Assembly: GCA_040222015.1 (NCBI GenBank)
Contig: JAVJWO010000129.1
Coordinates: 1-16,581 of the forward strand
Reading direction: 5' to 3'
DNA from: Coleofasciculus chthonoplastes F2-STO-03
Lineage (GTDB): Bacteria; Cyanobacteriota; Cyanobacteriia; Cyanobacteriales; Coleofasciculaceae
DNA: 16,581 nt
The translations under genes were made by a program, and so were the position numbers. The notes under the pieces are model-generated. The model did no database searches. It saw nothing but the letters and a program-made list of their open reading frames with translations, and was not told the DNA's origin. Shown here piece after piece: positions 1,082 through 15,829 of the stretch. Each line of letters begins with the position of its first letter. Position 1 is the stretch's first letter.

Positions 1082-4000
1082 TCAATTCAATTTAACCAAT
1101 TGAGTCCCACACTTAAAACAGAACTTAGAATTGCTAGGATTCTTCGTCCCACAATTCGTACAGAAAACATGGGCTTGCGGCGTTACACTCTTCGCCTCAA
1201 TCTGAGTTGGCGCATTCCCCCCATCACTCCGAGGCTGCTGCACAACCCCTGGCGACACAGACTGACTCTCTACCTTCAATTTATACCGCTCAATCACATC
1301 CAACAAAATCCGCGCCTCTCGCTTATAATCAGGACTATCCTTTCCCCCTTGCTTATCCAACTCCAACGCCCGTTGTTCCAAATATCGCGTCAATTGCCCA
1401 AAAATGGCTTGCTTTTGTGTAGGCGTTTCCGCTGCATTCAGCTTCTGCATCACTTGACGCTGAATCTCCTCCCTATCTGGGCGACAAGCTAACACCTCCA
1501 ACACCTGAGACGCTTCTTCCCAACTCGAAGCAATATCTACCGATTCTGCACCAATTGCTGTTTGCCGAGTATAGCGAATCACAGTTTCCTTGGTGGTGCG
1601 ATTTTCCTCTTGACGCAACACCCCCAGCGCCCGGGCTTGAACCACTAAACTAAAAATAGCCGGATCTTCGGGAAACACATCCCAAAACGGCGGTTCTTTT
1701 TGCAGATGCACCGGAATGGGTAAATCGCGACTTTCTCCCCGTAACTGCGCCCGTTTCGCCACAATACTTTCCCCTTTCCAATCTTGATAGGATTGGCGTA
1801 ATTCTTTCATCCCATCAATACAACGCAGGGAAAAACCGCCTGTTTCCTGGACAAATACCAGGCGATGTCGTTCTAAATCGCCCAAGGGTTTAATCGCTTC
1901 CTCATTCCCCAGAAATTCTTCTAATTTAGGGATAATTTTCTGTGCGGCTGGATCACTGGTGTTTCGCCCACCCAATAGCGCCACATTCGTATTAGTGGCT
2001 GGCGTAAACCCGGCATCTTTCCCCGTTAATACGGAACGCGAAAGCAGAATTAACGGCTTCGACTTGTTATAAGCAATGCGTAAATTATTCACAATCTCCG
2101 CATCATCATTAAACAGCTTAAACAGGCGATCGCACGCTGCCAAGTCTTGCTGCAATTTACTACTCTGCGGCGCTTTAGCCACTACTCCCTGACTGCGGTC
2201 AACAATAATCTGCCGCAAATCCTCATCTTGCACATCCGGGATTTCAGTAATATCAAATAACCGCATCACCTCATCTGCCATCCGGGTTTCTTTCCACAAG
2301 GGACTGGCTAAATTTAGGACTTCTTCAGATAAGGTACTACAAACCCCATTCATACCCATCTCATAAGCGGTTTGACTCCCCTCAGACGCCCCTGCCAACT
2401 GCTCAATTAAATCCTGATATAATCCATTCAGTTCCTGTCGGTCATACAGTTTAATCCCATTAATCACTAACGCATCCGCACTATCCGCCTGCCGATCCGC
2501 TTGTTCCTGATACAAATCCCGTGCCTGAATCAGCTTTTGTGTCCATCGGTTGAATCGCCGCTCTAATACCGTTAAATGCTCTTGTAACCGACTAATTACC
2601 TCCAATCCGAGTCCCCGTGCCTTCCGTTGAATGGTTGCCGTTAAACAGCCTTCTAACCCAATCAACGCTGATTCACAATACTCTTCCATTTTGGCTTGTT
2701 TGGTCACACCAAACTTATCCTTAAATTCAGTAATATCTTGCAGCGCCGCTTCATATTGTCGCTGGCGTTCCGTTTCCTTCGGTGACCAAATCTTATCCTG
2801 TTCCCGGCGAAACTTGTCACTGGCATCCTCAAAAATCTGTCGCACCGTCGCTAAGAAGGCATCAGCAAATTTAGGTCCTTGACGGCGGTTCTCTAGAATC
2901 TGATAAAACTCATCTTCTAAGGCTTTTCGCCCCCGTTTAATTAATTGATCTCGGTTATCGTACATCTTTTTCAGGAAGTCCCCATGTAACCGTTCATCGG
3001 GACTTATTTCGCGAAAATGATCGGTGCGATAGTTATCAACCTTTGGCTTGAGATACCCTGAGACAAATTGCAGGATTTTACCCTTTTCTGACGCCAACAT
3101 CTTCACCCCTTGCTGGGTACATTGCAGCCAGTTATCGCTGGCGATTTCATTCCGAATTTCATTTACCCATTCAGAAATTACCGCTAAATAAGACCGATCA
3201 GCCGCCGCTGATAAATCAGCTATAAGTTCCGCCTCCGTTAACCGCATCCGCTTCAGGATATCCCCTCGCACCAATTCCAATAATTGCGGCGGTAATTGCA
3301 CCGATTCATTCAACCACCACCCGATTAAATCTTTTGCCAAACGATTAGATAAGGATGTTCTAATTTGAGCGATAGGAATTTCTATCGTAGACAAACCAAA
3401 ACTCATAAAGTTCTTGGGATACCCTCGTCCCCCCGGATCAGCCTGCGCCCAAGCCCCCTTAATATTGTCCCGAATTGAACGTTTATGGGGGGCAAAATCT
3501 GAGGTTAAATCCAGGAAAATGTTCTGAGCAATCATTTCCCGCAGTTGATCCAGTTTAAAGTCACTTTCGCCGTTTTTAGTACCGACTAAATAGGTAAAAT
3601 CAAAGGGAGGGCGTTTGCTGCGGACTTCATCGGTTAAACTATTACTAAACTGGGCAACATATTCGGTGCGGTAATCAGAGAAATAGCTCAACTCCATTAA
3701 AGCCGCATAGCCATTTGCCAAAACGCGATCGCCCACACTAATTCCGACAAAGGCATTCGGCATCGGGACAATGGCGGTAATTAGGGGACTGCCTTCTCCC
3801 TGTAACCACTTGCGAATACTATAGCCCATATCGATGAGCATTCCACTGCCCGTTCCGCCGGATAAAGACCCCGTGATGAAGACGTTAATCGCATTGGTAC
3901 TCACTTTAATGCCATAGCGATCTAACATAAAATTTTCCCGCCCTTTCACCCGTTGACAGGCGGCGAGAAATTTATCTCGAATCTCGTGATAGTTACACCA

Positions 4001-4381
4001 TAAAGCAAATCGCCCACAAGCCCGAATTTGTCCCGCACCGGCTTCTAATGAGGTGATGTTGCGTTCTAATTCTCTAGGAAACCAACGATTAATCCAGGGA
4101 TAGTTTTCCATGTTAGACACCATATCCCGGACTTGTTTACCACTGACACTTGCCCAGTGTTTTTCGTTATCTTTTAAAGGGGAACCTGCGGCGTCGGGGT
4201 TGTTGATTTTATAGTCTTTGTCGGTGTCGATAACTAGGAAGCTAAGGATGGGAAAGTTGGTTAAGTTGCCGTAAGTTTCTGCAACTAAGCGTCGGACTCG
4301 GGAGACGATTTCGGCACCGGTGCCACCAATCCCAATGAGGATGGTGGGAACCATGCTTTTTTCTTCGACTTGAGTTGCCAT
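1082..4381 (-). CDS. Tubulin/FtsZ-like GTPase (Tubulin_2 / FtsZl1-type) with long helical region and C-terminal zinc ribbon
   Basis: N-terminal IGIGGTG, IDTD, GAGQ and tubulin signature GSLSGGTGSG. Long Q/E/R/L-rich helical middle. C-terminal CTNCG..CFKCG after a P/Q/S linker. 1099 aa. Confidence 0.9.
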   Translation of the reverse strand: MATQVEEKSMVPTILIGIGGTGAEIVSRVRRLVAETYGNLTNFPILSFLVIDTDKDYKINNPDAAGSPLKDNEKHWASVSGKQVRDMVSNMENYPWINRWFPRELERNITSLEAGAGQIRACGRFALWCNYHEIRDKFLAACQRVKGRENFMLDRYGIKVSTNAINVFITGSLSGGTGSGMLIDMGYSIRKWLQGEGSPLITAIVPMPNAFVGISVGDRVLANGYAALMELSYFSDYRTEYVAQFSNSLTDEVRSKRPPFDFTYLVGTKNGESDFKLDQLREMIAQNIFLDLTSDFAPHKRSIRDNIKGAWAQADPGGRGYPKNFMSFGLSTIEIPIAQIRTSLSNRLAKDLIGWWLNESVQLPPQLLELVRGDILKRMRLTEAELIADLSAAADRSYLAVISEWVNEIRNEIASDNWLQCTQQGVKMLASEKGKILQFVSGYLKPKVDNYRTDHFREISPDERLHGDFLKKMYDNRDQLIKRGRKALEDEFYQILENRRQGPKFADAFLATVRQIFEDASDKFRREQDKIWSPKETERQRQYEAALQDITEFKDKFGVTKQAKMEEYCESALIGLEGCLTATIQRKARGLGLEVISRLQEHLTVLERRFNRWTQKLIQARDLYQEQADRQADSADALVINGIKLYDRQELNGLYQDLIEQLAGASEGSQTAYEMGMNGVCSTLSEEVLNLASPLWKETRMADEVMRLFDITEIPDVQDEDLRQIIVDRSQGVVAKAPQSSKLQQDLAACDRLFKLFNDDAEIVNNLRIAYNKSKPLILLSRSVLTGKDAGFTPATNTNVALLGGRNTSDPAAQKIIPKLEEFLGNEEAIKPLGDLERHRLVFVQETGGFSLRCIDGMKELRQSYQDWKGESIVAKRAQLRGESRDLPIPVHLQKEPPFWDVFPEDPAIFSLVVQARALGVLRQEENRTTKETVIRYTRQTAIGAESVDIASSWEEASQVLEVLACRPDREEIQRQVMQKLNAAETPTQKQAIFGQLTRYLEQRALELDKQGGKDSPDYKREARILLDVIERYKLKVESQSVSPGVVQQPRSDGGNAPTQIEAKSVTPQAHVFCTNCGTKNPSNSKFCFKCGTQLVKLN

Positions 4382-4502
4382 GGTGGTTTCTTTGGTGAAT
4401 GAACGAGAATTGTTAGGGGTTGTAGCTTTTTGTCTGAAGCCTTATGTGTCGAGTCTATAGGTAGGCATATTTTCCCATGATGAAAAGTATACCATAGAAA
4501 AA

Positions 4503-4575
4503 CACTGATTTCACGGATTTACAGCAATCATTGAGGTGGGGCTTGGGGATGTTAGTTGCACTGATTTCACAGATT
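4503..4575 (+). repeat. Short direct repeat CACTGATTTCAC(G/A)GATT x2
   Basis: 4503-4519 and 4559-4575 are 16/17 identical, in the vWA-tubulin intergenic region. Confidence 0.7.
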
Positions 4576-4632
4576 GATAGAGGTTTGAGACTCTAATGAA
4601 AAGAGGATTGGATTGAGCCAGATATGAAACAG

Positions 4633-5538
4633 TTAACAGAGTGAAATAAACGGTAATCCTTTAGCTAAGTGCCAAATAATTAAAAGGGTAGCGACTGTCC
4701 AGAAAAAGGCATTGCCCAAGGCGAGTTGACCCGCAAGATTCATGGGCAGTTTTAGCCATCCTTGGAAAATCCAGCGATCTAAGGGGAGGATGAGTAACCA
4801 CATCAGAGAAATCCAGGCGGCACCCAGCCAAAAAATGACCCAGCGTCGATTACTGTTAAAATTCCTAAAGAATTGATTGGTGAAAACGGTTTCTAAATTA
4901 GTGACTTGACCGGAGTGATAGATCCCACCTGTAGTAGCCGCCGCGTTGCGTAAATCAGGTGCTTCATCACCCACGACAACAGCGTTAATCTTCACCCGAC
5001 GGGCGGCGGCGGCTTGAATCACCTCAGCATCAACGTCGGCTTCACCATCAGTGACTAAGAGTAATTCTCGGCAATGCTCCTGAATTGGACTTAAGGCGTC
5101 TGTTCCTTCCTGAATCGCTAAATTTAAATCCGTTGTACCCGGTACAATTCGCTGAATCAGGTTGGGATTTTGCAACGCCTGGTTCAATTCAGCGCTTACC
5201 TGTTGACTATCGGTTTGAAAGGAATCGGTCAGGGGTAAAACAACTCCCGCAAAACCAAAAACCTGAATTTGATTGGGAACTCTTAACAGTTGAGCATTTT
5301 GGTCAAGATAAGACTCAACGGCGATAACTTCCTGATACATCACCGTACCCGGTTGGTTGAACTGGGAGGGTTCAGAGAAGGTGCTGCTACTTAAATCTAA
5401 CGCGATCGCGACGGCTACCGATGGTCTACCCAGTCCGAGTAAGGCAAACAACGCAGCCGCGACTAAACATATACCCAAACAGATTAGGGGGATTTGGAAT
5501 AGGGGATACAACCAAAGACGGCGACGATAACGAAGCAC
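4633..5538 (-). CDS. Membrane-anchored von Willebrand factor A (vWA) domain protein
   Basis: GTG start. N-terminal TM helix. MIDAS elements DLSSS, GTTDL and LLVTDG, plus AAATTGGIY. Two C-terminal hydrophobic helices. Confidence 0.88.
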   Translation of the reverse strand: MLRYRRRLWLYPLFQIPLICLGICLVAAALFALLGLGRPSVAVAIALDLSSSTFSEPSQFNQPGTVMYQEVIAVESYLDQNAQLLRVPNQIQVFGFAGVVLPLTDSFQTDSQQVSAELNQALQNPNLIQRIVPGTTDLNLAIQEGTDALSPIQEHCRELLLVTDGEADVDAEVIQAAAARRVKINAVVVGDEAPDLRNAAATTGGIYHSGQVTNLETVFTNQFFRNFNSNRRWVIFWLGAAWISLMWLLILPLDRWIFQGWLKLPMNLAGQLALGNAFFWTVATLLIIWHLAKGLPFISLC

Positions 5539-5658
5539 CAGAAATCCTATAGAATTTTAAATCAGTGTTTTATCCTGTATTATAAGGCTTCCCTGGTTTT
5601 GGTAATTCGCACAATTGGCTAGAAACGTGAAGCCGGAACGTCTCATTCTCCATTAAGC

Positions 5659-5724
5659 AAAGGGCGACCCGAGTCAATTGAGTGGATTGGTGATGTTCAT
5701 TTGTGCAAGCGGGTCGCCCCTACA
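5659..5724. repeat. GTAG-type REP-like hairpin, left arm of a 55-bp inverted repeat pair
   Basis: GGGCGACCCG...CGGGTCGCCCCTACA (reverse complement TGTAGGGGCGACCCG). 5659-5713 matches the reverse complement of 6211-6265 at 46/55. Confidence 0.8.
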
Positions 5725-5770
5725 GGGGAATTATAGGTGTTGATTATTTATATGGATGCGAGGTATAACC

Positions 5771-6016
5771 ATGAGCGTTACCATTCCCGATGAAATCGTT
5801 AAAGCCTCACGACTCTCAGAAGCAGAGTTGATTCAAGAAATTGTGCTGATGCTTTTCCAGCAAAAAAAAATCAGCATCGGCAAAGCCAGTCGGTTACTGG
5901 GGATGAATCTAATCCAGTTCCAGCATTTGATTGCCAGTCGGGATATCTGTGTTCACTACGATGTTGCGGATTTCAGAGAAGATCTGAAAACAATTAATGC
6001 GTTGTATCCACAATGA
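5771..6016 (+). CDS. UPF0175 family protein, putative antitoxin
   Basis: MSVTIPDEIV..ISIGKASRLLGM..F..L..R.I..HYD..DF.EDL pattern. ATG 5771 has GAGG upstream (alternative start 5756). The stop overlaps the next ATG (ATGA). Confidence 0.8.
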   Translation: MSVTIPDEIVKASRLSEAELIQEIVLMLFQQKKISIGKASRLLGMNLIQFQHLIASRDICVHYDVADFREDLKTINALYPQ

Positions 6017-6237
6017 TTGTCGTTAGCAACACTTCACCCATCAGTAACTTAGCCGCTCTGGGGAATCTCCCTCTACTGCAACAGGTTTACCACAACATCA
6101 TTATTCCCAGTGCTGTTGCCGATGAAATCGCTCCTACAAGAGGGGGAGGACAGAGGATGCTTCGCTTTTGTTGCACGGGAGAAGGGGTTGAGCTTAAGTT
6201 GACACGGATGCCCGCTTCCATAAATGAACAACTCTAG
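6013..6237 (+). pseudogene. Truncated DUF3368-like PIN-domain toxin
   Basis: MIVVSNTSPISNLA..G.L.LL..VY..IIIP.AV.DEI is the family N-terminus. Similarity is lost at about residue 39 (~6130) at a REP-like AAATCGCTCCTACA; the rest is repeat-derived sequence. Confidence 0.75.
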
Positions 6238-6265
6238 TCCACTCAATCGGATCGGGTCGCCCTTT
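6211..6265. repeat. Right arm of 55-bp inverted repeat (REP-like)
   Basis: Reverse complement AAAGGGCGACCCGATCCGATTGAGTGGACTAGAGTTGTTCATTTATGGAAGCGGG aligns ungapped to 5659-5713. Confidence 0.8.
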
Positions 6266-6364
6266 CCTCAAATCTTTGGGTTAGAATGTATTTCTCATAT
6301 TCTGGAAGCATCTAGTTATCTGTGTTGTTAGGGAATTCAGAATGACGAGAAAATTAATATTTAT

Positions 6365-8023
6365 TTACTGAACGGGATCAAACTGATACCGCGAACCCGT
6401 CGGACCTGCAGAACCAGGAACGGCTTTAACCAGAGGGATTTGATTAAACAGATTAAAGTCTTGTGCTGTCCCAGAAATCGGAATTCCTTGATTTAGCTGT
6501 TGGTAAACTCCGGTTCGACTAGGATTTTGACTCAATGCTGTAGCTAAAGCATCCGTGGCATCATAAGCTGTGGTAGTACGCCAGCTAATTCTACCTCGCC
6601 AAATCTGGGCGGCTTCTTGAGCAAAAGCGTTGTTAGGTTGCCAACTCCAGGGAACAGCCAAGACCATTCCCGCGATCGCATCACCGCCTTCAATTAAAAT
6701 GGTTGGGTTATACAGTTCATCTCCCCCAATTAAACCTAACGGGTTTTCGGCTTGAGCGGCATTAGCTTGAGCCAGTGCGATCGCGGTATCCACTTTATTT
6801 TTACTCAATGCCAGAAATGCCATTGTCGCACCCGCTTGAGTAGCACTCTGAATTTCCCCGGCTGGGTCAAAACTGGGATTGGCGGTAATATCAACCGTTT
6901 TCACCACCTTCCCTTTCCCTTGAGACAAAGCAGCCGTAAACTGAGCGTTTAGGGCTTGGCTATAGGGACTGTCGGAATTGTAGAATACCACTACTGATGC
7001 CGGAGAAGATTGTTGGGCGGCATAATTTGCCAAGGTTTCACCCACTTGTTGCAAATAGGTGGCGAGTAATTCTTGGTCTTGTTGAGTCAGAGAAATAGTT
7101 TTTAAGATAGACTGACCTGTCGCGTCAGATGTCACATTGGTACTCACCGGTGAGAGTACAGCTAACCCCGCTTTTTCATATTGTGCGATCGCTTGTCGGG
7201 TTCCTGCATCTACTCCATGTCCAATCACGCCTAAAACCGGGGGAAACTTAATTAAATCCTCTGCCAAAGAAACGGTTTTTCCCATGCCATCATCATTGAC
7301 AATTATGACCTCCAATAAGCGATTGGCTGGCGTTGGAGAGGCGTTAAATTCCGCCTGTGCAGATGCGACACCCCTCAACACTTCTTTGGCTTCATTCTCA
7401 CTTGGCGTAATCGGAACTACAACCGCGATTGTCAATGGATTACCGATTTGCCTAGCTTTGGCATTATTGAAATAGAGTTTACTTTCTGGATCATTTGGGT
7501 CAGCATTTGTCGCTTGTTGATATTGTGCGATCGCCTGATCCCAATCTTGTTGAGCAAATGCAGCCGCGCCAGCTTGTTTGGCAGATGTTGTATCCAGTAA
7601 TATCTTTTCACCCTGACTCATCAGTGACGCATTACGTGGACTGGCGGTATCACTGAGTAAAGCGGTAGAGTTCTGGGGTGAGGGTGACGTCGGCGTCGGC
7701 GTTCCATTGTCGGTGACAGGTTGCGTCTGATTTTCCCTTGTCGCCAGATACCAACTCACACCACCACCCAACAGAACTAAGAGTGCGATCGCGACTAGAA
7801 TGGGCAGGGAAAATCGTGGTATTTTAACACCCTTACTCGACATGACTGTTTTTTTCTGCATCGCCTCTCGGGGCAAGCCACAGACTGAGCAATCTGGACC
7901 ATAATTTTCTTGGGGAGCATGGGAACCTGTACCAACATAAGACTGATCATTATTTTTCGGTTCACCATCGCAGATCCATTTCCCTTGTGAACTCACCTTG
8001 CCCACTCTCCTAGCCTTAGTCAT
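6365..8023 (-). CDS. Membrane-anchored LivJ/PBP1-type ligand-binding protein with TPR-like helices and N-terminal Cys/His motif
   Basis: N-terminal WICDG..H..CSVCG. TM helix LPILVAIALLVLLGGGVSW. SQGEKIL and TPR-like DWDQAIAQYQQA..DPNDPE..YFNN. IAVVVP..E.LRGVA, GGDELY and WRTTTAYDAT are typical of cyanobacterial branched-chain-amino-acid-binding-like domains. Confidence 0.8.
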   Translation of the reverse strand: MTKARRVGKVSSQGKWICDGEPKNNDQSYVGTGSHAPQENYGPDCSVCGLPREAMQKKTVMSSKGVKIPRFSLPILVAIALLVLLGGGVSWYLATRENQTQPVTDNGTPTPTSPSPQNSTALLSDTASPRNASLMSQGEKILLDTTSAKQAGAAAFAQQDWDQAIAQYQQATNADPNDPESKLYFNNAKARQIGNPLTIAVVVPITPSENEAKEVLRGVASAQAEFNASPTPANRLLEVIIVNDDGMGKTVSLAEDLIKFPPVLGVIGHGVDAGTRQAIAQYEKAGLAVLSPVSTNVTSDATGQSILKTISLTQQDQELLATYLQQVGETLANYAAQQSSPASVVVFYNSDSPYSQALNAQFTAALSQGKGKVVKTVDITANPSFDPAGEIQSATQAGATMAFLALSKNKVDTAIALAQANAAQAENPLGLIGGDELYNPTILIEGGDAIAGMVLAVPWSWQPNNAFAQEAAQIWRGRISWRTTTAYDATDALATALSQNPSRTGVYQQLNQGIPISGTAQDFNLFNQIPLVKAVPGSAGPTGSRYQFDPVQ

Positions 8024-10032: not shown

Positions 10033-11052
10033 TTATCGTCGATATTCGTCGCCACAATCGCCGATGATTTGATCCAAATCATAAGACTTGACCAATACCG
10101 CTTCAATCTTCTCCTTATCCTGGGCATCGAGAGTCATGGTAAATACTCTGGCATTATCGTCTATATGTTCCGATATGCCTAACCTCGCACCAACAATCAC
10201 ACCAGCTACGGCTGGCTGATCGAGGATATACCGCACGGCTACGTTGGGGATACTCACATTATGGTGAGTCGCTATGTCCTGGAGTACGGTTAGCAATTCT
10301 TGAAATAAACTCCAACCGCCCCAAGCATTGATCATGTTCTTGTATTTTCTCAAGCTAGCCGTAGACAGTTGTGCCCCACCCGGTTCAGGTTTTCCTAAAT
10401 ACTTTTCTGATAACAAGCCGCCGCAGACTGTACCATAGGTGAAAAGTTTAATCTCATGGTCTTGACAAAACGGTGCCATGTTGACTTGAGGACGGCGGTC
10501 AATCAGGGAATACTGGACTTGATTGGAGAGGATGTTGATCCCGGCGTCGATGATAATTTTTAGGTGTTCGGTATCAAAGTTGGTTAACGCCAGGTGCTTG
10601 ATTTTCCCTGACCTTTGCAGTTGTGCCATCTGCTTGAGGGCGTCCAGATAGTTGCGATCGCGGTAGTCCCACCAGTGGAATTGCAACAAGTCTAGGCAAT
10701 CCATTCCCATCCGTTGGCGAGAGCGATCGATATTTTTCTCTACCCATTGTCGAGTCATCCGACCCGGGCGGGGTACCCATTTGGTAAAGGCTTGGATGTT
10801 TGCTAACGCCTCCTCACCGCGAGTCGCCACCAGTTGACGCCTAAATTCGCCAATAAAATCTTCAGCCGGTCCGTAATGATCAGCCAGATCCCAAGTGGTA
10901 AAGCCAGCATCTAGATAATCAAACATACTGGGGATGGCTTTTTGGGGATCAATGCGTCCATGAGCGCCAGATACTTGCCATAAGCCATTTAGGATGCGAC
11001 AGATGTTTAAATCTGGGGCTAATTGCAATCGGCTTGATTCAGGTAAAGTCAT
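10033..11052 (-). CDS. Aldo/keto reductase family protein
   Basis: GLWQVSG, DLADHYG, FTK, LDLLQFHWWD, GKIKHLALTN and NQVQYSLIDRR. Start placed at ATG 11052 because the extension to 11112 is an octamer repeat. Confidence 0.92.
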   Translation of the reverse strand: MTLPESSRLQLAPDLNICRILNGLWQVSGAHGRIDPQKAIPSMFDYLDAGFTTWDLADHYGPAEDFIGEFRRQLVATRGEEALANIQAFTKWVPRPGRMTRQWVEKNIDRSRQRMGMDCLDLLQFHWWDYRDRNYLDALKQMAQLQRSGKIKHLALTNFDTEHLKIIIDAGINILSNQVQYSLIDRRPQVNMAPFCQDHEIKLFTYGTVCGGLLSEKYLGKPEPGGAQLSTASLRKYKNMINAWGGWSLFQELLTVLQDIATHHNVSIPNVAVRYILDQPAVAGVIVGARLGISEHIDDNARVFTMTLDAQDKEKIEAVLVKSYDLDQIIGDCGDEYRR

Positions 11053-11060
11053 GGGGAGGA

Positions 11061-11100
11061 GGGTAGAGGGGTAGAAGGGTAAAAGGGTAGAAGCGGTAAT
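11061..11100 (+). repeat. Octamer tandem repeat GGGTAGAA x5 (degenerate)
   Basis: gggtagag gggtagaa gggtaaaa gggtagaa gcggtaat. Confidence 0.8.
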
Positions 11101-11249: not shown

Positions 11250-11266
11250 GAGGGGTCTCACCCCTA
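11250..11266. promoter_or_regulatory. HetR-box-like palindrome 1
   Basis: GAGGGGTCTCACCCCTA, a perfect AGGGGT-N3-ACCCCT inverted repeat. 15/17 to the hetP-promoter HetR site GAGGGGTCTAACCCCTC as I recall it. Confidence 0.7.
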
Positions 11267-11304
11267 TTTACGTTGCAGAATTTACCAATTAATCTTGAAT
11301 AAGA

Positions 11305-11355
11305 GAAAAACAAGAGCCATAAGTGGCTCTCTCGATTATCAGGGTGCATCTACAT
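11305..11355 (-). ncRNA. Putative small RNA copy A (~50 nt)
   Basis: -10 CATACT (11361-11366), then ATGTAGATGCACCCTGATAATCG, hairpin AGAGCCA-CTTA-TGGCTCT and a T-tract. 28 bp identical to copy B. Confidence 0.65.
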
Positions 11356-11379
11356 AACACAGTATGGAATTTGGGGGGT

Positions 11380-11396
11380 GAGGGGTGTTACCCCCT
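11380..11396. promoter_or_regulatory. HetR-box-like palindrome 2, over the -35 region of sRNA copy A
   Basis: GAGGGGTGTTACCCCCT, centre 11388, about 33 nt upstream of the predicted TSS. Confidence 0.65.
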
Positions 11397-11434
11397 ATTT
11401 AGATCAATCTTGGCAGCTACCTTGATCCAGACCA

Positions 11435-11494
11435 AATAAAAAAGGAGAGCCCTAAAATTAGGCGACTCTCCCGATCATCAGGGTGCATCTACAT
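11435..11494 (-). ncRNA. Putative small RNA copy B (~60 nt)
   Basis: Extended -10 TGCTATACT (hexamer 11500-11505), then ATGTAGATGCACCCTGATGATCG, hairpin GGAGAG..CCTAA-TT-TTAGG..CTCTCC and TTTTTTATTT. Confidence 0.7.
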
Positions 11495-11518
11495 AACACA
11501 GTATAGCACTGTGGGGGT

Positions 11519-11535
11519 GGGGGGTGTCACCCCCT
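11519..11535. promoter_or_regulatory. HetR-box-like palindrome 3, over the -35 region of sRNA copy B
   Basis: GGGGGT-GTC-ACCCCC, centre 11527. Contains GTGACA on the minus strand. Confidence 0.65.
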
Positions 11536-11588
11536 ATTTTATTTTTTTTGCTGAAGTTCTAGTCCCTGTTGCCCGTTCCCCGTTCCCT

Positions 11589-12482
11589 TTAATGGTATTT
11601 GAGTGTCTTTTTCACCAAGTCGGGAATTTTGGAAGGGTACTCAGCGACAGGTATATTTGCCTGTTTGAACGCCGCCACCTTATGTTGAGCTGTTGTCGTA
11701 TTTGCGATCGGTCCGGATAGTTGAGCCGCGATAATGGCGCTGGTATCCCCGACTTGTTTGTCTTCAGGGGTATATTGTCCAGCAACATAAGCAATAACGG
11801 GTTTCTCTATGGCTTGGGCAATAAACTCTGCGGTTTCATCTTCACTATCGCCCCCCGTCTGATCCACTAAGACAATCGCTTCTGTCCGTTTATCCTGGGC
11901 TAGAATCTCCAGCCACTGACGAAATGACGAGGCGATAATGGCTTCACTACCGAGATTCACAGCAATGGATTGTCCAAGTTTAGCTTGGGTTAACCCTAAA
12001 GCCACTTCATAAGTGAGAGTACTGACTCGGCTAATCACACCAATTGTACCGGGCGTATAAAATTCACACTCCTGAGTCCCCAGTAACAGTTTTCCTGGCA
12101 CAATAATCCCAGAACTACTCGGTCCAACAATCAGGGTTTCCCTGGCTTTGGCTTTGGCTAGCAAGTGAATCATATCTAGAGGTGGAATACCACCCGTCAC
12201 TAGAATAATGGGTGACAAGCCAGAATCTATCGCTTCTAACGCTGCATCCAAGGCGCTGTAGGATTCGGCAAAAATAACCGTGGCGTCGCAATATCCAACT
12301 TCGGATAACGCCTCTTCTACCAGGTCAAAGACGGGAATCCCATGCAACGTCTGTCCTCCCTGACCTGCACTAACCCCAGCCACTAGATTTGTGCCATAAG
12401 CTTTCATTCGGGCGGCATAATAGGAACCGATGGGTTGGGTGATGCCCTGAACCAGGATTTTCATGTCTGGTGTGAATTTCAT
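11589..12482 (-). CDS. sucD: Succinyl-CoA synthetase alpha subunit homolog (divergent; catalytic His absent)
   Basis: KILVQGIT, YGTNLVAGVS, PVFD.V.EA, GTIGVISR..TLTYE, GQS.AV and KPVIAYVAG. Follows sucC. Start placed at ATG 12482. Confidence 0.9.
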   Translation of the reverse strand: MKFTPDMKILVQGITQPIGSYYAARMKAYGTNLVAGVSAGQGGQTLHGIPVFDLVEEALSEVGYCDATVIFAESYSALDAALEAIDSGLSPIILVTGGIPPLDMIHLLAKAKARETLIVGPSSSGIIVPGKLLLGTQECEFYTPGTIGVISRVSTLTYEVALGLTQAKLGQSIAVNLGSEAIIASSFRQWLEILAQDKRTEAIVLVDQTGGDSEDETAEFIAQAIEKPVIAYVAGQYTPEDKQVGDTSAIIAAQLSGPIANTTTAQHKVAAFKQANIPVAEYPSKIPDLVKKTLKYH

Positions 12483-12570
12483 AGGCGTTGGATGCAGCAA
12501 TGTAGTAGATGCGATCAACAATATCAGTAAAGGTTTGGCGCAAGGGGTAACTATAGGATACCGATAAGTA

Positions 12571-12627
12571 CTGGTTATTCGTCATTTGTCATTCGTCACA
12601 CTCACTTCTCTCCCAGCCAACTAAGTC
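12571..12627 (+). repeat. STRR-like heptamers (x4) plus the same conserved tail as 8704-8783
   Basis: ctggtta ttcgtca tttgtca ttcgtca, then CACTCACTTCTCTCCCAGCCAACTAAGTC. Confidence 0.75.
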
Positions 12628-12662
12628 TTATGTTGCACAATGATCGCATTCCCAATTCAGTC

Positions 12663-12722
12663 AGGGTGGGTTGAGTCACATCGGGGCGGGAAAAAACGAT
12701 AATAGTGAAACCCGCCCCTACA
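12663..12722. repeat. GTAG-type REP-like long hairpin between sucC and sucD
   Basis: AGGGTGGGTT / GGGGCGGG ... AAACCCGCCCCTACA (reverse complement TGTAGGGGCGGGTTT). Confidence 0.7.
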
Positions 12723-12736
12723 CACTCACAACTCTT

Positions 12737-13990
12737 TCAACTTGCCAGAGAAATCGCTTGTGCCACTGCCTGATCCAAGTTACCCATCCAGTGTACAGGG
12801 AGTGCCGCTAAACGGTCTTGGATAGTGTCTATTTTGCCGTTAGCTAAGCGAATGACTAGGTGAGGTAACTCTGTCCTAGATAAAGATTTCGGAGTGAGAT
12901 GGCGGCGGCGACGATTGCGTGAGTCACGGGAGTGCAATTTTCCTGTCGTTGGTGTTTTGGCGGGATCTACTGCACTGACTCCGGAGTTATTTTCATCTTT
13001 CGATAGTAGATAACTGGCAATTACCTCAGCCACGGCTTCACTAGCTGCTTCGTTGCTCAAAATATTCACTAAGACAACTTGGATGTTTTGAGTGTCCGTC
13101 AATTGCTGCAAGGCATTTTGTAACTGTTGGACTGGAGAGGCGGCGGACGGTACATCCCAACTGGCATAACCGTCTACAATTAAACAGTTTGCTGGCTTAC
13201 CTTTGGCTTTGTACACTAAATCCAATGTGGCGGCAGCAAGACAAGGACTATTACACAGAATACCAATATTTCCTTGACTATCCGTCCATTGCAGATCCGT
13301 TGGTTGGTCAGTGGGTTGGGGGGTGTGGGTGAGGCTTGATGCCAGGTTTGCCAACTCTGATTGGCGTCCCAAAGCGTGATCATTGACCGCAATTTTGCCA
13401 TCTAGCGCCATGACTTCACCGCTAGCACTGACGCCGAGGGGATTAATTTCCACTAAATCCAGGTCTTTTTGGATCAGAAGTTGATACATTTTCTGGACAA
13501 TATCGCTGACTGATTCAATCAGATGACCTTGCAGTCCCATTTTGAAGGCTAGACGTCGGGCGTAAAAGGGAGAGAAGTCTTCCTCGACGACGACTCGCTG
13601 CATCTGTGCCATGACGTTTTCCACATGGATACCACCTTGACATGAACCCAACAGAACGGGGCGTCTTAAGGTGTAGTCGAGGATAACCGCTAGATAGAAT
13701 TCTTGTTCAGCATCATAATGGGATTCCGCTAGCAGCACGTTGGGATATTTACCGAGAATGGATAGATTAAAAATAGCCCGTGCGGTGGCGATCGCGTCAA
13801 TTGTATTTTCCACTGTCCGGATACCACCGGCTCTACCCCGCCCGCCTTTGGGGACTTGGGATTTGAGAACCACGGGATAGGGAATGTCTAACTGCTTGAG
13901 ATCTCTGGGATGATCGATGCATTGAGAGGGCAAGACGGGAATGCCGATCTCGCGGAATAAGGCTTTGGCTTGGTATTCTAGTAAGTCCAT
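12737..13990 (-). CDS. sucC: Succinyl-CoA synthetase beta subunit homolog (ATP-grasp intact, C-terminal domain divergent)
   Basis: MDLLEYQAK.LF, VLKSQV..GGRGRAGG, EFYL, GG...E, EINPL, ALDGKI and GNIG. Confidence 0.92.
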   Translation of the reverse strand: MDLLEYQAKALFREIGIPVLPSQCIDHPRDLKQLDIPYPVVLKSQVPKGGRGRAGGIRTVENTIDAIATARAIFNLSILGKYPNVLLAESHYDAEQEFYLAVILDYTLRRPVLLGSCQGGIHVENVMAQMQRVVVEEDFSPFYARRLAFKMGLQGHLIESVSDIVQKMYQLLIQKDLDLVEINPLGVSASGEVMALDGKIAVNDHALGRQSELANLASSLTHTPQPTDQPTDLQWTDSQGNIGILCNSPCLAAATLDLVYKAKGKPANCLIVDGYASWDVPSAASPVQQLQNALQQLTDTQNIQVVLVNILSNEAASEAVAEVIASYLLSKDENNSGVSAVDPAKTPTTGKLHSRDSRNRRRRHLTPKSLSRTELPHLVIRLANGKIDTIQDRLAALPVHWMGNLDQAVAQAISLAS

Positions 13991-14281: not shown

Positions 14282-14977
14282 GTGTTCCCCATTAGTGATG
14301 ATAATCCGACGCGCATTACTCCTTATGTAACCTACGCGCTCATTGGTGTTAATATTGCGGTTTTTATCCATCAATTACTCTTAGCACCGCCCCAGCTTAA
14401 TTCATTTTTTCATCTGTATGCAGTTGTCCCCAAAGAGTTAAGCGCTAGCTTTCAGGGAATTCCGGTCAATCAACCCGTGCCCGAATGGTTTACCTTGATC
14501 AGTTCTCAGTTTCTCCATGGGGGGTTTTTGCATATTGGCGGAAATATGTTGTTTTTATGGATTTTTGGCAACAATATTGAAGACCGCCTGGGTCATATCA
14601 AATATTTTATATTTTACATTGCTTGTGGTATACTTGCCGCTCTGTCTCAGTGGTTTTTCTCCATGGAATCCGGGATTCCATCCCTAGGAGCGAGTGGTGC
14701 GATCGCGGGAGTTATGGGTGCTTATATTCTCAGGTTTCCTAGGGCTCAAATCAATACCTTAATCTTTTTAGGGTATTTCGTGACCACCATTCGATTACCT
14801 GCTGTTTTATACTTAGGATTATGGTTTGTCCAACAAGCGTTTAGTGGCGTGGCGAGTATCAGCGTGCAAACGGATTTGGGGACTGAAACCGGAGGAATTG
14901 CGTATTGGGCGCATGCAGGCGGTTTTGTGTTCGGAGCCATCCTGGGTCCTTTATTTGGATTATTGTCTGAAGATTAA
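14282..14977 (+). CDS. Rhomboid family intramembrane serine protease (copy 1)
   Basis: GTG start, FPISDDNP, FLHGGFLHIGGNMLFLWIFG, GASGAIAG catalytic Ser and WAHAGG catalytic His. Confidence 0.95.
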   Translation: MFPISDDNPTRITPYVTYALIGVNIAVFIHQLLLAPPQLNSFFHLYAVVPKELSASFQGIPVNQPVPEWFTLISSQFLHGGFLHIGGNMLFLWIFGNNIEDRLGHIKYFIFYIACGILAALSQWFFSMESGIPSLGASGAIAGVMGAYILRFPRAQINTLIFLGYFVTTIRLPAVLYLGLWFVQQAFSGVASISVQTDLGTETGGIAYWAHAGGFVFGAILGPLFGLLSED

Positions 14978-15097
14978 AGGATTTTGTCATTTGTCATTTG
15001 TAATGGGTTGAGGATTAGTGATAGAAGTTAATGAATTTGGATTTATTCCCACCCACCTACTTAAATAATTGTTGATTGTCAATAAGGAAATAGACTT

Positions 15098-15829
15098 ATG
15101 GTTCCATTACGTGATGAAAATCCAGTTAAGATTACACCATATATCACATATATCCTAATTGCGGCAAATGTCCTAATTTTTATTTTTGAGCTAACTTTAA
15201 GCCCTCAACAACTGGATGTATTCTTCCATCTATTTGCCGTTGTTCCGAAAGAACTTACAGCCAGTTTGAACGGAATTACGGTAAATCAGCCGATACCTGA
15301 ACCGCTAACGTTAATCACTGCACAGTTCCTTCATGCGGGGTTTACCCATGTGGGATTTAATATGTTATTTCTCTGGATTTTTGGCAATAATATTGAAGAA
15401 GAACTGGGTCGGTTCAAGTTTCTGATATTTTATCTAACCTGTGGCGTATTAGCCAGTTTAACCCAGTGGTTTTTCTCCGCCCAATCGGGGATTCCGTCTC
15501 TGGGTGCCAGTGGTGCGATCGCGGGCGTGATGGGTGCTTATATTCTTAAGTTTCCCAATGCTAAAGTGGTTACATTAATTCCCCTAGGCTTCTTTTTTAC
15601 TACGCTAAGATTACCATCTGTCTTCTTCCTCGGATTTTGGTTCTTACAGCAAGCTTTTAATGGATTAGCCATGTTAGAAGCCCCAGCAAATGTGGGGATG
15701 GAAAATGGAGGTATCGCTTACTGGGCGCACGCTGGCGGGTTTGTCTTTGGTGCTGTCCTCGGTCCTTTGTTAGGATTATTTTCTGATGATACAAAATCAT
15801 CATTTGGGGATTCCCAAAATCTTTCTTGA
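15098..15829 (+). CDS. Rhomboid family intramembrane serine protease (copy 2)
   Basis: VPLRDENP, FLHAGFTHVGFNMLFLWIFG, GASGAIAG and WAHAGG. AAGGA SD upstream. Confidence 0.95.
   Translation: MVPLRDENPVKITPYITYILIAANVLIFIFELTLSPQQLDVFFHLFAVVPKELTASLNGITVNQPIPEPLTLITAQFLHAGFTHVGFNMLFLWIFGNNIEEELGRFKFLIFYLTCGVLASLTQWFFSAQSGIPSLGASGAIAGVMGAYILKFPNAKVVTLIPLGFFFTTLRLPSVFFLGFWFLQQAFNGLAMLEAPANVGMENGGIAYWAHAGGFVFGAVLGPLLGLFSDDTKSSFGDSQNLS

Follow-up and report, generated by a model that had tools for sequence, protein, structure and literature searches.

Two similar units resembling small RNA genes, each preceded by a palindrome that recalls the binding site of HetR, lie in the intergenic region that separates a sucD-like gene from an aldo/keto reductase gene in Coleofasciculus chthonoplastes F2-STO-03. 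Coleofasciculus is a non-heterocystous genus. The locus raises the question of which RNA family the units belong to, whether HetR would read the palindrome, and with what effect. An initial annotation had proposed a HetR-controlled multicopy sRNA, possibly related to NsiR1 and placed beside sucCD. The window, i.e. the whole stretch of 16,581 nucleotides, was analysed together with the rest of the genome and with related genomes.

The two units and their predicted RNA

A repeat search in the window recovered two tandem units of 81 nt each, 85% alike and 139 bp apart, which share a maximal identical core of 28 bp (11338-11365 = 11477-11504); the coordinates and the distance first given for this pair were reproduced. 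On the minus strand each unit reads palindrome GGGGT-N3-ACCCC, 15 nt, TATACT or CATACT, 7 nt, GTAGATGCACCCTGAT, hairpin and T-run. Every element of this layout, as initially described, was found in both units, and TCCGGA is indeed missing from both promoters. An order-4 Markov model predicts 0.003 occurrences of the 16-nt seed in the 7.7 Mb genome, where 6 are found. The features of the intergenic stretch and its two neighbours are as follows.

11589..12521, minus strand: sucD-like gene, upstream neighbour (TIGR01019, 258.6 bits, cut-off 353)
11521..11533, no strand assigned: palindrome A, predicted HetR site (centre 33-35 nt upstream of the predicted start)
11500..11508, minus strand: extended -10 element of copy A, TG-C-TATACT (from the sequence)
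11436..11494, minus strand: predicted sRNA copy A, about 57-59 nt (start predicted at 11492-11494; Rfam NsiR1 23.1 bits)
11477..11492, minus strand: 16-nt seed of copy A (equal to the first 16 nt of PCC 7120 NsiR1)
11436..11472, minus strand: terminator hairpin (about 11443-11472) and U-tract of copy A (folding, covariation)
11382..11394, no strand assigned: palindrome B, predicted HetR site (13/17 against the hetP site)
11361..11366, minus strand: -10 element of copy B, CATACT (TG-C-TATACT at the same place in relatives)
11304..11355, minus strand: predicted sRNA copy B, about 50-52 nt (start predicted at 11353-11355; Rfam NsiR1 26.1 bits)
11338..11353, minus strand: 16-nt seed of copy B (exact core match)
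11304..11331, minus strand: terminator hairpin (11312-11331) and U-tract of copy B (folding)
11252..11264, no strand assigned: third palindrome, without seed (15/17 against the hetP site)
10033..11052, minus strand: aldo/keto reductase gene, downstream neighbour (PF00248, E 3e-65)

The promoter of copy B may be weakened, since relatives have TG-C-TATACT where copy B has CATACT. Both sRNA copies are kept in 8/8 genomes of the same genus, and two Coleofasciculus sp. loci carry the same pair of units beside SucD proteins that are 95-96% identical. Repeating the period of the first two, the third palindrome lies a further 130 bp on, but no seed follows it. It is the closest of the three to the HetR site of hetP and precedes the start of the aldo/keto reductase gene by about 200 nt; its arms are kept and its centre varies in 8/8 same-genus genomes, and it is probably either a decayed third repeat or an operator of the aldo/keto reductase gene. 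Four purine-rich repeats with an 8-bp period are found directly before the start of the latter gene (11053-11091).

Taken whole, the two RNAs have unremarkable folding z-scores (-1.3 and -1.6). The hairpin part folds better than shuffled sequences (z below -2) in 127 of 132 copies. Because alifold on the 132 sequences gave no structure, covariation was read from an alignment of 22 sequences chosen for diversity, in which the 9-pair hairpin shows two-sided changes at 4 of its 9 pairs and 95% of cells are paired, against 58-70% in slid registers. The core is invariant and unpaired in this alignment. The idea that structure is conserved while sequence changes thus holds for the two hairpins of the window, which differ and both pair, and extends to the relatives through covariation. 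An invariant unpaired core joined to a covarying hairpin is the usual build of a base-pairing sRNA, and by analogy with NsiR1 a base-pairing action is likely.

It is very probable that the units are transcribed, and the RNAs are predicted to measure 50-59 nt. Among contigs from four of nine RNA sequencing runs on mixed samples, some cover the repeats; since they extend through the promoter and its flanks, in libraries whose contigs reach 15-78 kb, they may derive from DNA. In the accessible part of a Trichodesmium start-site table, which gives coordinates without sequences and omits RNAs shorter than 300 nt, nothing is recorded behind the gene labelled GatB/Yqey, and the accessible Nodularia supplements hold no match to the RNA.

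Relationship to NsiR1 and distribution with hetR

The best Rfam matches in the window are to NsiR1 (RF02399), at both copies, with 26.1 and 23.1 bits. The suggested kinship with this family stands in so far as NsiR1 is the best match of both copies, but both scores fall under the Rfam gathering cut-off of 39 bits. In the Rfam alignment the 16-nt core GUAGAUGCACCCUGAU is exact (16/16 in both copies) and the 3' part is unlike NsiR1. The NsiR1 of PCC 7120, as printed in an excerpt of the supplement of PMC4734099, opens with the same 16 bases. The exact seed and these best matches support the proposed relationship.

The same genome holds four further copies that pass 39 bits and have TCCGGA promoters, one on contig C31 (39921), about 270 nt upstream of hetF and antisense, and three in tandem on C75 (1124-1385). 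Palindrome-type copies number six: besides the two in the window, C167, C181, C85 and C113 each carry one, slightly altered on C85 and C113. The window units probably work as NsiR1 does, but they depart from it in three membership features (score, promoter and position) and are therefore assigned to a sister class of the NsiR1 family; since canonical TCCGGA-type NsiR1 is present in the same genome, they represent a second promoter class of that family. With the two promoter classes found side by side across families, neither can be placed first in origin.

Relatives of NsiR1 are on record: a table in the consulted portion of PMC4734099 carries 38 ticks for NsiR1 homologues, 27 for heterocystous and 11 for non-heterocystous strains, and RNA162 of Limnospira indica is described as NsiR1-like in the relevant passage of PMC8400943. 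The name CsfR1, under which such RNAs might already have been described, was not found in passages of PMC4734099, and the ten best results of a literature search on it were all unrelated work. Neither a HetR-boxed class nor patU as a target was found in the accessible text of PMC9045159, PMC4734099, PMC13342950, PMC4192349, PMC4649674 and PMC8400943, nor in that of PMC4030482, PMC6596454, PMC11797042, bioRxiv 10.1101/2020.04.15.042648, PMC4143802 and PMC3610870. Within these texts the HetR-boxed class was thus not found in print; Ionescu 2010, Brenes-Alvarez 2020 and Mitschke 2011 could mention such copies.

A scan of species representatives returned at least 120 stretches (estimated total 640), and the named genomes in its listing are cyanobacteria, nearly all of them filamentous, with and without heterocysts. 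Among the loci listed, a strict box is present at 162 of 173 core occurrences. Of 301 evenly sampled genomes of the class, 122 have the palindrome layout, 155 have hetR and 143 have TCCGGA-type copies. The layout is present in 121 of 155 hetR-positive genomes vs 1 of 146 hetR-negative ones; comparing the two lists, 121 of the 122 genomes with the layout have hetR. Conservation in related genomes, on which the initial proposal depended, is therefore wide and follows hetR, and the gene itself is present in the genome studied here. As kin are not independent, this co-occurrence is to be read as a lineage pattern and not as a statistic. The single exception, G011, has no hetR match by family or protein; its hetR may be unassembled, since the genome has hetZ and a second hetZ-like gene. 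In some hetR-positive genomes the box is eroded or no such copy was found.

Because these patterns demanded the box, a search by the RNA body alone was run; it required A or T at the first position, whereby some copies were dropped, and gave 95 matches in 81 of the 301 genomes. By hand count, 87 of the 95 have GGG-N5-CCC at the expected place and none has TCCGGA. Seven of the exceptions are eroded boxes in hetR-positive genomes (G147, G157, G175, G200, G292, G039 and G052), and the eighth, G079, has no trace of a box and no hetR or hetZ match. In the genus of G079 no hetR match was found in 3/3 genomes, one of them assembled in 3 contigs, and in all three the RNA, its -10 box and its position between gatB and argJ are kept while the palindrome is lost. 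This single lineage provides the best evidence here, drawn from sequence comparison, that the box would answer to HetR. The co-occurrence as a whole would fit equally well with another regulator inherited alongside hetR.

The genome also has hetZ, a second hetZ-like gene, a hetP-like gene and nifH, the last (C80:4418-5230, locus L172) above its curated cut-off. Directly upstream of hetR lies a frame of 88 aa with RGSGR near its end (L017 2380-2646; C85:76136, minus strand); no other small frame of this kind was found in the genome, and this one is probably patX.

Most genomes have one copy of the RNA gene, commonly behind gatB. In 160 flanking frames of the longer loci, gatB was counted 42 times upstream and argJ 24 times downstream, and gatB-argJ is the usual locus. 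Two Spirulina loci (L027, L064) have a palindrome-type RNA gene that adjoins hetR in convergent orientation. The gene sucD flanks 2 of 127 loci and is specific to the genus, so that the supposed synteny with sucCD does not extend beyond it; a link with succinyl-CoA synthetase was considered and rejected on this count. In the genome studied here gatB and argJ are split between two contigs, and gatB is not followed by a copy of this kind, for which reason the sucD site is, from gene order, read as a relocation with no evident functional meaning.

The sucD-like and sucC-like proteins beside the units (11589-13990) score 259 vs 353 and 214 vs 370 bits against the NCBIfam cut-offs. As these scores are well under the cut-offs, the two may be divergent paralogues. 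Elsewhere in the window, positions 1082-8023 include a 1099-aa protein that has no match in NCBIfam and whose N-terminal GIGGTG motif is tubulin-like. Beside it are a 301-aa unmatched protein, a substrate-binding-like protein and broken kinase-like frames (79-1038), and two tandem rhomboid-family protease genes occupy 14282-15829.

The palindrome as a predicted HetR operator

According to passages of the published work, HetR binds a 17-bp inverted repeat before hetP (PMC4192349), and GGG-N5-CCC is essential for binding by EMSA (PMC4649674). All three palindromes of the window contain GGG-N5-CCC, and identity to the hetP site is 12/17 for palindrome A, 13/17 for B and 15/17 for the third, in agreement with the likeness to HetR boxes noted at the outset. 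By itself the palindrome is only modestly enriched, since GGGGT-N3-ACCCC occurs 19 times in the genome against 7.5 expected; 7 of the 19 are at these RNA loci. Judged by motif and distribution, HetR probably binds the palindromes.

Across the 156 unique copies among the loci listed, the distance from box to seed is exactly 28 nt in 120 and 26-29 nt in 155, and the TG of the extended -10 is kept in about 75%. A promoter scan of the minus strand gave no consensus sigma-70 promoter, and there is no -35 hexamer. On the RNA strand the palindrome is followed by CACCCC (11514-11520 and 11375-11381), which repeats the half-site 7 bp further on and is kept at 53-84% per position among copies of the loci listed. 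Similar palindromes were observed at other sites of the genome. One lies about 78 nt upstream of a KAP-type P-loop ATPase gene (L256; C94:13131-14544) and is kept in the genus and in some relatives of the family and order. Two more (L258 about 1112, C155:21612; L259 about 1377, C12:18577) each have a degenerate seed-like stretch nearby, and on C155 the gap between palindrome and TATAAT is some 10 bp wider than that of the RNA promoters.

We propose that a housekeeping-type extended -10 promoter would drive the predicted 50-59 nt RNA, that HetR on the palindrome over the -35 would shut this promoter off, and that the seed would pair with mRNA start regions. For this model as a whole, i.e. NsiR1-seed RNA genes with an extended -10 promoter, HetR repression and seed pairing with mRNA starts, we estimate a probability of about one half. 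Provided that HetR binds, we lean towards repression rather than activation, because the box is at -33 to -35, the -10 is of the extended type, and promoter and RNA outlast the box, as at the eroded boxes of L140-L142, G039 and G052 where RNA and -10 persist. An excerpt of PMC4192349 offers a precedent in the HetR-dependent repression of alr2242.

Activation is the less probable course but stays a serious rival, since box and seed keep a fixed distance and the promoter has no -35 hexamer. The same RNA and HetR site would then form an early direct feed-forward arm ahead of the HetZ-driven NsiR1 copies. The tight range of 26-29 nt in 155 of the 156 copies among loci listed and the failure of the promoter scan to find a consensus sigma-70 promoter on the strand would suit an activator, as would reports that HetR activates PhetZ and PhetP in E. 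coli (section of PMC13342950) and that NsiR1 promotes differentiation (section of PMC9045159). A box placed on the -35 position, one turn closer than at hetZ, and a -10 box and RNA that outlive box loss in several lineages point instead to the repression that we prefer. We consider it improbable that the RNA is real and the palindrome is bound by some other regulator confined to filamentous cyanobacteria, or is an opposite-strand terminator that protects the gene, even though the palindrome with its T-run scores terminator-like on the plus strand, the co-occurrence with hetR largely follows lineage, and G011 has a box without detectable hetR. The motif is the HetR core. In the 95 copies of the body-only search its arms stay GGG/CCC, with no compensatory swap, around a variable centre, and the copies often lack the flanking A-run; the terminator hairpin of the RNA, by contrast, covaries.

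A departure from any RNA-based reading would be to see in the units a short peptide starting M-H-P-D or a small mobile repeat, and we give this very little credence. An ATG inside the seed does open frames of 23 and 61 codons. These frames cross a terminator of variable length and leave no room for a ribosome site, and the third codon positions of the core are invariant in the 156 copies among loci listed, the first 12 bases being fixed by the search. The six dispersed copies of this genome could suggest mobility, but the single copy of most genomes, commonly behind gatB, does not.

Candidate targets and comparison with known systems

Under the preferred repression model the seed would act on mRNA starts, and 6097 start regions were ranked by duplex energies with no accessibility term. 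With the core as query, the start of patU, a name assigned from protein matches, takes rank 5 of 6097; the two 22-nt 5' ends place it at 8 and 12. The predicted duplex joins 13 bases, is interrupted by a single bulge and lies immediately ahead of the ATG. Over 14 loci of the same order, no window of the hetZ gene scores better than the hetZ-patU junction, a result equalled by 0 of 40 shuffled seeds. In other orders (17 loci) the site gives no signal, 21 of 40 shuffles being as good, and within the order it is missing in two families (f3 and f10). The same bases encode part of hetZ and form the spacer of a HetZ promoter. As G079 keeps the RNA without hetZ, patU cannot be the sole target; its start is the best target lead, albeit a tentative one.

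The hetR, hetZ, patX and hetP-like genes rank between 455 and 5622 of 6097; the hetP-like gene, which is related to the known target alr3234, is at 3386-4843. A match in the hetZ 5' leader was considered as a target site and rated weak: it is found in 27 of 31 loci, with 1 of 300 shuffles as good and the site chosen post hoc, and it coincides with the codons for N-A-P-x-D-G in the divergent gene, where synonymous sites vary freely. The complementarity upstream of hetF is explained by a sister copy in antisense orientation, about 270 nt ahead of the hetF start. The KAP-type ATPase gene on C94 has a 9-nt seed match in its first codons, confined to one family (f1), and is a minor lead. A seed complement before the aldo/keto reductase gene was set aside, being lost in most same-genus relatives.

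TCCGGA promoters are described in the accessible part of PMC13342950 as read by the sigma factor HetZ, itself activated by HetR, with PatU as a likely anti-sigma factor. The family would then have two inputs, HetR acting indirectly through HetZ on the TCCGGA copies and directly on the palindrome class, so that RNA with the same seed would be supplied in both cell states. One could go further, though with considerable doubt, and see here an old sRNA arm of the HetR-HetZ-PatU circuit common to filamentous cyanobacteria, which in this order would block PatU translation.

Few direct HetR targets are established, and the element is a short (promoter of about 50 bp), highly conserved candidate that bears on the role of HetR in filamentous cyanobacteria that make no heterocysts. 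If the model is true, this operator would count among the direct targets of HetR, widely conserved and usable as a reporter of HetR action in species without heterocysts. NsiR1, treated as a heterocyst marker, would have a sister class under different control, as our data suggest; if this class is expressed, probes against the NsiR1 seed would also detect it in strains that carry it.

Among known systems the closest is NsiR1 of PCC 7120 (RF02399; PMC9045159 and PMC4030482, in the passages at hand), with which the units share the 16-nt 5' core, the length of 50-60 nt, an intrinsic terminator and a tandem arrangement with one promoter per copy, in arrays of up to 8 in relatives. Both are confined to hetR-bearing lineages among those searched. 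They differ in the promoter, TCCGGA (DIF1) for NsiR1 vs a palindrome over the -35 and an extended -10 here, in the sequence of the hairpin and the sub-threshold scores of the window copies, and in position, upstream of hetF for NsiR1 vs usually gatB-argJ, and sucD/aldo/keto reductase in this genome. NsiR1, whose expression is HetR-dependent and heterocyst-specific, pairs with hetP-like (alr3234) and hetF mRNAs; the hetP-like start ranks low here. NsiR1-like sequences outside heterocyst formers are already listed in PMC4734099 and PMC8400943; in the portions of these two sources consulted, promoter classes are not separated and no HetR site is mentioned. Compared with the HetR sites of the hetP and hetZ promoters, as described in extracts of PMC4192349, PMC4649674 and PMC13342950, the palindromes have the same GGG-N5-CCC core and a variable centre. 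Those sites precede hetP and hetZ, whereas the predicted site precedes a non-coding RNA; the hetZ site is centred at about -45, as computed from Nodularia coordinates in an extract of PMC3610870, whereas the centre is predicted at -33 to -35 here, about one helical turn closer to the start.
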